A DNA stretch of 64,000 nucleotides from Escherichia coli 042 (GTDB lineage Bacteria > Pseudomonadota > Gammaproteobacteria > Enterobacterales > Enterobacteriaceae): NCBI RefSeq assembly GCF_000027125.1, contig NC_017626.1. One strand, written 5' to 3'. A model generated the notes under the pieces. The model searched no databases and was not told the origin of the DNA. It worked only from the letters and a program-made list of their open reading frames with translations. The position numbers and the translations under genes are program-made. Positions 34,284 to 49,639 of this stretch are shown piece by piece; the stretch's first letter is position 1, and each line of letters starts with the position of its first letter.

Positions 34284-37175
<2,892 letters not shown>

Positions 37176-37179
<4 letters not shown>

Positions 37180-38063
37180 GCTTCCTCGGTTGTCGTCTGT
37201 TGTTGCGGATTTTTCACCGCACGCACATGCTCTTCCAGTTCAATAAACGATGGACGTTCGCTGGAATAGAGCGTTTTGCGACCAAACTCAACGGCGATAG
37301 GCGGTGCGTAACCGTTCAGATTAGAAAGCAGTGTGACTTTGACGCACTGCATCATTTTGCTGGTTTCGGCGCTTTTCTGACGTAAAACACTCGCTAATGG
37401 GGAAATAAATCCGTAAGCCAATAAAATACCGAGGAAAGTCCCCACCATCGCATGTGCGATAAGCGCCCCCAGCTCGGCGGCAGGACGATCGGCTGAACCT
37501 AACGCGTGAACGACCCCCATCACAGCCGCGACAATACCAAACGCCGGAAGTGAGTCCCCGACCAGCGCCAGACTGTTCGCCGGGACTTCTGCCTCGCTTT
37601 CGTGCGTCTCAATCTCTTCATCCATCAGGGCTTCGATTTCGAAGGTGTTCATGTGACCGCTGATAATCAGACGCAGATAATCGACGATAAAATCAAGCAT
37701 GACGCTATCCGCAAGGATGCGTGGGTAGCTGGCGAAGATCTCGCTCTCACGGGGATTTTCAATATCACGTTCCAGCGAAAACATCCCCATCTGCCGCGAT
37801 TTCGCCATCAACCGATAAAGCAGAGCCAGCAGATCCATATACATTGCTTTGGTATATTTGGAGCGACGAAACAGCAACGGCAGCGCCTTCAGCGTACCTT
37901 TAATCGCTTTGCCATTATTGCCGACGATAAACGACCCAATCCCTGCACCGGCAATAATCACCAGTTCAGCGGGTTGATAGAGTGCTCCAAGGCTTCCACC
38001 GGTCATCAAATAACCGCCGAAAACTGTACCGAGAACAACCAGGTAACCTAATAAGATAAGCAC
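37176..38063 (-). CDS. motA: flagellar motor stator protein MotA
   Basis: 295 aa; GTG start (plus-strand cac at 38061-38063); 4-nt overlap with motB. Confidence 0.95.
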
Positions 38064-38131
38064 GACATCATCCTTCCACTGTTGACCATGACAGGATGTT
38101 CAGCCGTCAGACGTTAACGCGCGATTGGGGC

Positions 38132-38163
38132 AAAAAAAGCAGCGGTACGTCGTTACCGCTGCT
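38132..38163 (-). terminator. rho-independent terminator downstream of flhC
   Basis: agcagcggta-acgacg-taccgctgct hairpin with a T run on the minus strand. Confidence 0.7.
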
Positions 38164-38188
38164 GGAATGTTTCGCCACACCGTATCAG

Positions 38189-38767
38189 TTAAACAGCCTG
38201 TACTCTCTGTTCATCCAGCAGTTGTGGGATAATATCGGCAGGATTCTGGGAAAGTTTACGTCTTTTTACTGCCCGGGATGGCGGCTGACATAAGCTGCAG
38301 GCAAAGCTGCCAACAGGCTGGTGAGCGTGGGTAATAAAATTGCCGCCGCAGCAGTTGCAGCTGGAAAGTTGCAGTAATCCACTTTCAACAAACCGCACCA
38401 ATGTCCAGGCACGGGTTAATGCCAGCAGCGGTCCGTCTTCTGGTTGCGGGCACTGTTCAAGGTATAAACGGTAGGCTTTGATCACCGCATCGACGCCATT
38501 ACACAAACCGGTTTTCAGTAAAAACTGCCATGCGTTACAGAACATCGAAGCATGAACGTTTTGTTCCCAGGTCATAAACCAGTCGGTTGAGAATGGCAGC
38601 ATGCCTTTCGGCGGTGGGCTTCCGCGCAGTTCTTTATAGAGTTTTATCAGGCGTCCGCGGCTTAACTGTGTTTCGCTTTCCAGCATCTGCAAACGAGCGC
38701 CCAGGGTGATCAATTCCATTGCCAGCTGAATATCCCGCGCTTTCTGAACAATGCTTTTTTCACTCAT
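38189..38767 (-). CDS. flhC: flagellar master regulator subunit FlhC
   Basis: 192 aa, [27 protein letters not shown]; zinc-binding Cys cluster. Confidence 0.97.
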
Positions 38768-38769
38768 GA

Positions 38770-39120
38770 TCAGGCCCTTTTCTTGCGCAGCGCTTCTTCA
38801 GGCTGATTAACATCATTCAGCAAGCGTGTTGAGAGCATGATGCCGGTATGAATTTGCTGGAGATCGTCAACGCGGGAATCTTGCGTCAACTGAGTAATCG
38901 TCTGGTGGCTGTCAAAACGAAAGTGACAAACCAGTTGATTGGTTTCTGCCAGCTTAACCATTTGCGGAAGAGTCAGTGCCGCTAACGTTGTCGCCATTTC
39001 TTCATTTATGCCGAGACGAAACATTGCGGACGCTTTGTCCTGAACAATCAGACGCTGTGCAAGTAGTAAATATGACAAGTTGATGTCATAAATGTGTTTC
39101 AGCAACTCGGAGGTATGCAT
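38770..39120 (-). CDS. flhD: flagellar master regulator subunit FlhD
   Basis: 116 aa from [20 protein letters not shown] (a 119-aa version would start at 39129). Confidence 0.93.
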
Positions 39121-39900
39121 TATTCCCACCCAGAATAACCAACTTTATTTTTATGCGGTCTCACCGCACCCCGTGATGTCGCCGGGAAGCCCCGGTAAAA
39201 AATAATTAGCATTAGAATAGTTGCGATAAGCTGCAACAGGCAGAGCCCCTTTTTTGGATTTAATAAGTCCTCACAAATAGAAGGGGCTCTTTACACTTAT
39301 CTAAGATTTTTCCTAAATCGACGCAACTGTACTCGTCACTACACGCACATACAACGGAGGGGGGCTGCGATTTTCAATAATGTGTGATGCAGATCACACA
39401 AAACACTCAATTACTTAACATAAATGTATAAGTCATACTTTTGTTTTGGGTGTATTTCAATCTGTTAAAAAGTTTTTCGCAACGCTAGCAAGCAAAAATG
39501 AAACAGGAATAATCGAAATGGGATGTTGCGCACAGTTAAAATAACTCACCGTAAATAATCATCTGCTATAAATAATCACTTTCATGCAATACCAGATAAG
39601 CTATTTTTAAACAGACACTTACCGCACAACAAACTAATTAAATACAAAGAAAGGCAACAATCAACTTAATGTTAATAAAATGTTTTACATATATTAACCA
39701 CTTGTTTAATATGGAGAATCAGTACATTATTTTCTTATAATTACAGTTGAAATCATATGATCACCGAGAGTGATTGATTAATTGTCTTTACTAATAATCA
39801 GACTAATATTTACCTGTTTGACTGAGTTGGGATTGCGTCGTTTCTCCATTAGGAGTAAAGCTTTAATGTCACCTGAAGTTCACAGAATAAGGAACAGGTT
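39121..39900. promoter_or_regulatory. flhDC class 1 control region (divergent from uspC); no IS element present
   Basis: About 780 bp, AT-rich intergenic region with no transposase ORF and no inverted repeats. Confidence 0.7.
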
Positions 39901-40329
39901 ATGAGCTATAGCAATATTCTTGTCGCCGTTGCGGTTACACCGGAAAGTCAGCAACTGCTGGCAAAAGCGGTATCTATCGCCAGGCCAGTAAAGGGACACA
40001 TCAGTTTAATTACTCTCGCGTCCGACCCGGAAATGTACAATCAATTAGCTGCGCCGATGCTTGAAGATTTACGCAGCGTGATGCAGGAAGAAACGCAAAG
40101 CTTTCTTGATAAGTTAATTCAGGATGCGGGGTATCCCGTTGACAAGACGTTTATTGCCTACGGTGAGTTAAGCGAACATATTCTGGAAGTTTGTCGCAAA
40201 TATCATTTCGATTTGGTGATTTGCGGTAATCACAATCACAGTTTCTTTTCGCGAGCATCCTGCTCGGCGAAAAGAGTGATTGCCTCAAGTGAGGTCGATG
40301 TGCTGTTAGTTCCACTTACGGGAGATTAA
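39901..40329 (+). CDS. uspC: universal stress protein C
   Basis: 142 aa, MSYSNILVAVAVTPESQQLLAKAVSIARP. Confidence 0.93.
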   Translation: MSYSNILVAVAVTPESQQLLAKAVSIARPVKGHISLITLASDPEMYNQLAAPMLEDLRSVMQEETQSFLDKLIQDAGYPVDKTFIAYGELSEHILEVCRKYHFDLVICGNHNHSFFSRASCSAKRVIASSEVDVLLVPLTGD

Positions 40330-40335
40330 CCGCAC

Positions 40336-43688
<3,353 letters not shown>

Positions 43689-49399: not shown

Positions 49400-49639
49400 T
49401 CAGTGACGGCAAATCTTACTCTGATCGGTCGAAAAACCTTCTTCCGAAGGTATAAATTTGCCTTTTGCTGCCAGAAACGCTACCAGCTCTCCCGCTGTCA
49501 TCCCTTCTGCCGAGCAAGTGTGAAAACGTGCCTGTTCACCAAAACGCGCTTTAATCGCAGCTTCCAGACTGGCATGCGTATATTGCTCACCTGATTCAAT
49601 CATCATATTTAACACTTCATGACCGTGAATAGAGTCCAT
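49400..49639 (-). CDS. yecH: DUF2492 protein YecH
   Basis: 79 aa, MDSIHGHEVLNMMIESGEQYTHASLE. Confidence 0.85.
   Translation of the reverse strand: MDSIHGHEVLNMMIESGEQYTHASLEAAIKARFGEQARFHTCSAEGMTAGELVAFLAAKGKFIPSEEGFSTDQSKICRH

Follow-up and report, generated by a model that had tools for sequence, protein, structure and literature searches.

An apparently native, uninterrupted flhDC control region with no retained trace of an insertion sequence and a rare leader hairpin allele in Escherichia coli

Introduction

The DNA between flhD and uspC raises a simple question in any Escherichia coli strain: does the flhDC control region stand in its native form, or does it carry one of the insertion sequences (IS) for which this region is known? 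In K-12, insertions of IS1, IS5 and IS3 at positions from -96 to -476 raise motility or flhDC expression and arise on motility agar or while strains are being constructed, and 49 of the 71 Keio strains tested had mutations upstream of flhDC (PMC5100188, PMC5493358, PMC11237407). Expression of flhDC is activated by CRP (PMC5493358), and the upstream region in which IS sites extend to -476 is also bound by H-NS, LrhA, OmpR, Fur, IHF, MatA and YjjQ (PMC5493358, PMC5100188).

We have examined this region in a stretch of E. coli DNA of 64,000 nucleotides, referred to here as the window, in which a first-pass annotation made from the sequence had described the flhDC upstream region as intact and in a wild-type regulatory configuration. 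We compared the region with the IS-containing K-12 records, searched it for IS DNA and IS remnants, placed it among the complete E. coli genomes, and analysed the promoter and the 5' untranslated leader that it contains.

Results

The flhD–uspC intergenic region

The gene order around the region is motB–motA–flhC–flhD on the minus strand, the intergenic gap, uspC on the plus strand, and otsA–otsB on the minus strand. This arrangement is usual for E. coli and is annotated likewise in MG1655 and an O158:H23 strain. The gap is bounded on the left by the intact flhD coding sequence (38770–39120, minus strand), listed amongst the open reading frames (ORFs) as a protein of 116 amino acids (MHTSELL...) with its ATG at 39120, and corresponding to WP_001295647.1 as annotated by RefSeq at the identical locus of O158:H23. 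Downstream of flhD lies flhC (38189–38767), and flhDC differs from the K-12 operon by 12 substitutions with no indels. The right-hand boundary is formed by the ATG at 39901 of the uspC coding sequence (39901–40329, plus strand; 142 amino acids), and the intergenic region therefore occupies exactly 39121–39900, or 780 bp.

The GC content of the gap is 35.3% (33.0% in the part upstream of the start site and 41.7% for the leader) compared with 50.5% for the whole 64-kb window, and the distal upstream region (39427–39900), which is common to the divergent uspC promoter, has a GC content of 26–33%. The longest ORFs that touch the gap are 30–40 amino acids long. The first-pass description of an AT-rich gap of about 780 bp which lacks a transposase ORF was accurate, with the coordinates exact and no ORF exceeding 40 amino acids.

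One of the short ORFs, of 38 codons with a TTG start (39120–39236, minus strand), lies inside the flhD leader and ends in a TAA stop which overlaps the flhD ATG (TAATG). This is probably not a real upstream ORF, because the overlapping stop is not retained in Salmonella (GAACAATG).

Comparison with the K-12 insertions and searches for IS DNA

The gap aligns end to end with the 779 bp that remain of the MG1655 gap without IS1H (768 bp) and its 8-bp duplication, and the two differ at 24 positions (23 substitutions and one 1-bp indel; 96.9% identity). As they stand in the records the gaps measure 1,555 bp in MG1655 with IS1H and 1,978 bp in W3110 with IS5, compared with 780 bp here. In the W3110 record the gap is interrupted by an IS5 of 1,195 bp with a 4-bp TTAA duplication which maps exactly to 39415–39418 of the window, where a TTAA is found that corresponds to the IS5 hot spot at -99 to -96 (PMC5100188). 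Directly adjoining this is CATAAATG (39419–39426), the target that was duplicated by IS1H in MG1655. Both target sequences are unoccupied in the window and each is present in the gap as a single copy, with no target-site duplication of either.

Searches for IS DNA gave the same result. The IS1 (InsA and InsB) and IS5 (InsH) transposases produced only chance matches when compared with 39001–40000 by tblastn (E ≥ 1.2), the best blastn match of IS1 or IS5 DNA to the same interval had an E value of 0.5, and neither element was found in the 64-kb window at E ≤ 1e-5. No match to the IS1 terminal repeats with three or fewer mismatches was found in the whole 64-kb window, and the IS5 terminal repeat had a single three-mismatch match at 49550, some 10 kb from the gap, with 1.05 such matches expected by chance. 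An Rfam search over 36000–42000 returned no match at E ≤ 1.

The first-pass annotation had proposed that neither IS1 nor IS5 is inserted here, that laboratory K-12 lines carry activating insertions at this place, and that the region is a natural IS target. The first of these is borne out by the colinear MG1655 and W3110 alignments, the two single-copy target sites, and a scan in which no terminal inverted repeats or transposase fragments were found in 39121–39900. The second agrees with the MG1655 IS1H, the W3110 IS5 and the literature cited above. The third is plausible, because both hot-spot sequences are conserved and 16 YTAR tetranucleotides (the IS5 target motif) are found upstream of the transcription start.

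Two other explanations of the IS-free appearance of the gap were weighed. One is that it hides the decayed remains of an IS, a MITE or the scar of an excision, and the gap does contain a 22-nt inverted pair with 82% complementarity (39247–39268 and 39633–39654, 364 nt apart) as well as several short direct repeats, which superficially resemble terminal repeats and target-site duplications. However, the DNA between the two arms of the inverted pair comprises the promoter, the CRP site and a portion of the leader, which are conserved in E. coli and beyond, and because the pair encloses conserved promoter DNA the 39247–39654 unit is not mobile, and the arms were ruled out as the ends of a MITE. 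Repeats of such quality are also to be expected in DNA of 26–35% GC, and one of the direct repeats, TAAATAATCA, with two copies at 39552 and 39569, is present in K-12 as well. None of the short repeats is therefore taken for an IS end or a target duplication, each being either common to K-12 or placed around conserved promoter DNA. With the gap within 1 bp of the length of the IS-free K-12 gap, IS1 and IS5 similarity absent at both the DNA and protein level, and no Rfam match, we give a hidden remnant practically no credence. The other explanation, that a real IS has been collapsed out of the assembly, we consider highly improbable. IS-type repeats are classic breakpoints of short-read assemblies, but an IS usually breaks a contig and is not precisely spliced out without its target duplication, and the junction seen here, with both targets in single copy, is the same as in two independently assembled complete genomes and in the consensus of thousands. 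It should be noted that a clean and precise excision of a past IS would likewise leave no trace, and that a site which was never occupied is not provable as such.

Distribution amongst E. coli genomes

The full 780-bp gap was matched in 5,421 of 5,426 complete E. coli genomes, with at least 80% of it covered in one place in 5,271 of the 5,421. Because pieces as far as 890 bp apart are joined in this search, an IS1 would be bridged and the result is unreliable for counting uninterrupted genomes; the count given here rests on a 381-bp query (39320–39700) with which an IS1 cannot be bridged. The shorter interval is uninterrupted in 5,247 of 5,415 genomes (96.9%) and split in the remaining 3% or so, among which are the K-12-type records. 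The wild-type configuration proposed for the region in the first-pass annotation is thus upheld in the sense that the window has the native IS-free form found in about 97% of genomes. For the same reason the lack of an IS, although correctly observed, is unremarkable, as it is the default state of the species and already known.

Two complete genomes of wild strains, O158:H23 CFIAFB20140388 (NZ_CP076709.1) and NY1601, are 100% identical to the window across all 780 bp and have the same flanking genes in the same order. Matches of at least 99% over the 780 bp were found in 19 genomes only, because the leader patch at 39237–39287 diverges. In the O158:H23 genome the identity to the window is limited to approximately 38744–39926 and the flanks are about 1% divergent, which indicates that this short tract has been shared by recombination or descent and does not reflect strain identity. 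Over 22 kb (29000–51000) none of the 5,426 complete E. coli genomes is at least 99% identical to the window, with the best at 98.8%. These comparisons suggest that the locus sits in a local recombination mosaic and that the source lineage is poorly sampled.

We also observed two matches to the flhD–uspC region on records labelled as plasmids; these replicons may have been mis-assigned or may have captured large pieces of chromosome.

Promoter and CRP site

The transcription start of flhD was placed at 39319 by homology, as the K-12 annotation of the antisense RNA AsflhD ends at flhD +1 (PMC9600491). With the start at this position, two landmarks known independently from the literature fall where they should: the centre of the CRP site at -71.5 and the TTAA of IS5 at -99 to -96 (PMC5100188). 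The core sigma-70 promoter (39326–39354, minus strand) has a -10 element of TACAGT (39326–39331) and a -35 element of TTGTAT (39349–39354) with a 17-bp spacer, and is identical to that of K-12. It is too weak to be found by a consensus scan, which fits with CRP dependence. The CRP site, which reads TGTGATCTGCATCACA on the mRNA strand (39383–39398), is a perfect consensus palindrome centred at -71.5. Its half-site TCACA is found in the window and in all eight other wild alleles sampled, with the site in strain 98210 differing at one spacer base, whereas K-12 has TCACG; in this sample it is K-12 that carries the variant of the predicted site. A sigma-70 promoter and a CRP site are both found at the published distances from 39319, as would be looked for in a native class I control region.

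The best match to the sigma-70 consensus in the gap lies elsewhere, at 39712–39741 on the plus strand (TGGAGA-18-TATAAT, 10 of 12 positions), approximately 160 nt upstream of the uspC ATG. By its consensus match this is a candidate uspC promoter. Promoter-like matches in the region are no commoner than in shuffled sequences.

Conserved parts of the flhD leader

The 5' untranslated leader (39121–39319, minus strand) is 199 nt long compared with 198 nt in K-12. Its 3' block (39121–39205, minus strand) contains two hairpins (CCGGGG..CCCGG and GCGG..CCGC) and a weak Shine-Dalgarno sequence (GGGUGG), and these last 85 nt of the leader are conserved in Escherichia, Salmonella, Citrobacter, Enterobacter and others, with one difference between the window and K-12, at 39160. 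The sites of the repressing sRNAs ArcZ, OmrA/B and OxyS lie in the 3' block, upstream of or overlapping the Shine-Dalgarno sequence (PMC3634460), and in a windowed pairing scan with McaS all of the top K-12 sites were placed in the same conserved block (+123 to +196) and none in the polymorphic patch described below.

The AsflhD homologue (39099–39319, plus strand; K-12 annotation b4839; PMC9600491) has its promoter inside the flhD codons, and the transcript spans the whole leader including the polymorphic hairpin. The interval 39052–39159 shows no difference from K-12, and the AsflhD promoter region is identical. In vitro, RNase III has been found to cut the flhD leader in its structured regions (PMC9600491).

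At the other end of the leader, GAUUUAGGAAAAAUCUUA (39302–39319, minus strand) carries the first GGA at +7, and this 5' end (GAUUUAGGAAAAAUCUUAG) does not vary among the E. coli alleles and is also conserved in other genera. At the DNA level it presumably also represents a sequence resembling an RcsAB box (TAGGAAAAATCTTA). The GGA at +7 is probably CsrA site 1, and a further GGA (39268–39270, minus strand; +50 to +52 of the mRNA), found within GUGAGGAC in the loop of a hairpin, is probably the second 5'-proximal CsrA site. We take the published positions of the CsrA sites BS1 and BS2 to be +1–12 and +44–55. The flhDC leader has two 5'-proximal CsrA sites, at which CsrA binds and shields the mRNA from RNase E (PMC3997798).

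A rare allele of the leader hairpin

The differences between the window and the IS-free K-12 gap are unevenly spread, with 11 of the 24 clustered in 51 bp of the leader (39237–39287). This patch falls within an extended stem-loop (39225–39301, minus strand; approximately +19 to +95) which is present in the minimum free energy (MFE) folds of both the window and K-12 alleles. The outer helix of the stem-loop is invariant in E. coli, and the inner helix and the loop make up the polymorphic patch. The inner helix of the window allele is a GC-rich duplex of 10 perfect base pairs (AGAGCCCCUU/AAGGGGCUCU; 100% complementary) formed by two inverted-repeat arms 29 nt apart. These are AGAGCCCCTT on the plus strand (39242–39251), which provides the 3' arm on the mRNA and is replaced by AGAACCACCT in K-12, and AAGGGGCTCT on the plus strand (39281–39290), which provides the 5' arm. 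A polymorphism profile gave a pi value of 0.108 in the patch compared with 0.007–0.033 elsewhere, although this is inflated as the sample was picked by patch class.

The exact 75-nt allele of the window was found in 17 of 5,389 genomes, in which there are three major 74-nt alleles (1,921 genomes with the K-12 type, 1,348 and 895) alongside numerous minor ones. For the 81-nt element the predicted folding energy is -28.6 kcal/mol in the window compared with -14.5 kcal/mol for K-12 and -15.0 to -22.1 kcal/mol for eight other alleles, and when the whole leader is folded the values are -67.7 kcal/mol (z -3.1) for the window and -53.6 kcal/mol (z -0.95) for K-12. The GGA in the loop has a predicted probability of being unpaired of 0.92–0.95 in the window, compared with 0.04 in the closest allele, that of strain 98210, which has three differences. 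By prediction the window thus has what is looked for in a CsrA hairpin, an exposed GGA in a loop near the 5' end of the mRNA. No description of a polymorphism in the flhD leader hairpin was found in the literature searched.

The hairpin was ruled out as an intrinsic terminator or attenuator, as there is no terminator-like site on either strand in 39000–40000; the loop of the hairpin is 29 nt long and the stem is not followed by a U run on the mRNA strand.

In the wild-boar isolate J31 (NZ_CP053787.1) we observed an IS1 (1733–2500 of the stretch compared) inside the loop of the flhD leader hairpin. It is flanked by a 9-bp duplication, AATAAGTCC, equivalent to 39262–39270 of the window and including the loop GGA. 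Because it lies downstream of the promoter, this insertion probably represents a motility-off allele, in contrast to the activating insertions found upstream in K-12, and insertions of this kind are known from non-motile mutants (PMC5100188).

Is the hairpin a selected structure?

Amongst ten distinct alleles, 94% of cells pair in the hairpin, mainly since 15 of the 21 pairs are the same in every allele. Changes on both sides are seen at two pairs, and in 406 of 500 shuffles of these ten alleles covariation was equal or better (the covariation score is 0.080 compared with 0.077 for the shuffles); these two pairs, which also vary the most, are mismatched in seven and five of the ten alleles, respectively. 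Compensatory evolution of the hairpin arms, to which a comparison of K-12 with the window had pointed, was rejected as evidence of selection, as the pair counts were no better than those of shuffles. A structure conserved across genera was also rejected, as there is no excess stability in the segment between the conserved leader blocks in 28 Enterobacteriaceae sequences (mean z -0.27). For this segment the K-12 z is +0.28 and the window, at -3.16, is an outlier. The middle of the leader looks weakly constrained because there is no excess stability across the 28 sequences or in K-12, and the simplest reading would be that the patch is a weakly constrained spacer which has diverged among lineages, with the window allele at the stable extreme.

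We have also considered that the rare leader allele might be a functional variant in which altered CsrA binding, 5'-end-dependent RNase E decay or RNase III cleavage resets flhDC, which we regard as rather unlikely. The clustering of the K-12 differences in so short a segment, the rarity of the exact allele, the additional stability of the 81-nt element and of the whole leader, and the predicted exposure of the loop GGA, which in 98210 is predicted to be paired, are all points in its favour, as are the published roles of CsrA at the two 5'-proximal sites and of RNase III on the structured leader. Yet the covariation is not significant and the most variable pairs are often unpaired, the segment shows no excess stability across species or in K-12, and the direction of any effect is ambiguous, as the stem could protect the mRNA from RNase E or provide an improved substrate for RNase III. 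A more ambitious proposal, which we hold to be unlikely, is that 39237–39290 acts as a lineage-specific tuning knob for flhDC via CsrA, RNase E and RNase III, of which the window would be an extreme allele with the GGA freed. If this were true, natural strains would set motility post-transcriptionally in parallel to the IS route taken by laboratory strains, and if leader alleles do differ in flhDC output, they would provide a natural, non-IS explanation for differences in motility among E. coli lineages.

Discussion

Our preferred reading, in which we have high confidence, is that 39121–39900 is the native, uninterrupted class I control region of flhDC with no retained trace of an IS, and that its regulatory behaviour may be taken from K-12. 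The sequence is continuous, contains no IS DNA, and has the conserved promoter, CRP site, leader blocks and IS targets. By homology with K-12, the weak sigma-70 promoter would start the flhD mRNA at 39319 in dependence on cAMP-CRP bound at -71.5, and the AT-rich DNA further upstream would serve as a platform for H-NS and other repressors which keep flhDC low. The 199-nt leader would then be the target of CsrA through its 5'-proximal GGA sites, of the sRNAs ArcZ, OmrA/B, OxyS and McaS, and of the cis-antisense RNA AsflhD together with RNase III. Where IS1 or IS5 inserts in K-12 laboratory lines, at the equivalent of 39415–39426 or further upstream, it relieves the repression. With the IS targets empty, wild-type and environmentally regulated expression of flhDC is expected here, and IS activation would still be possible on motility agar. 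Nothing was found to contradict the IS-free reading, and the reservations concern function, as the rare leader allele, with a hairpin predicted to be some 14 kcal/mol more stable, could shift post-transcriptional control either way.

As a strain descriptor, the finding indicates that the source is not a K-12 derivative with activated flhDC, and that native control by CRP, H-NS and CsrA can be expected. Both of the classic IS targets are available, and soft agar would be expected to yield hypermotile IS mutants; survival of acid shock should be similar to that of strains without an IS (PMC11237407). Motility cannot be predicted from an intact region, as good swimming is confined to porous media in most natural isolates (PMC11836070). 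The IS-free state in itself matters little in a locus that has been so well studied, and we see the polymorphic leader hairpin as the sole thread which might lead somewhere new.

Comparison with known systems

Insertions of IS1 or IS5 also relieve silencing by H-NS at bglGFB, glpFK and fucAO, where the upstream DNA is AT-rich and prone to duplex destabilisation (PMC5493358). These are catabolic operons, whereas flhDC in the window has no insertion and shares with them the susceptibility only. The CsrA-protected flhDC leader of K-12 has two 5'-proximal GGA motifs (+7 and +50), of which the second lies in the loop of a hairpin, as is the case in the window, but the window differs in having a perfect GC-rich stem and a G in place of an A two positions 5' of the GGA.

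The closest comparisons are those with the K-12 strains themselves. W3110 carries IS5 and a duplicated TTAA in the same gap in which the window has the same TTAA as one empty copy, and MG1655 (CGSC 7740) carries the 768-bp IS1H with its 8-bp duplication at the equivalent of 39419–39426, where the target in the window is empty. With the IS removed, MG1655 and the window share the promoter, the AsflhD region, the upstream sequence and, except for 39160, the 3' block of the leader.
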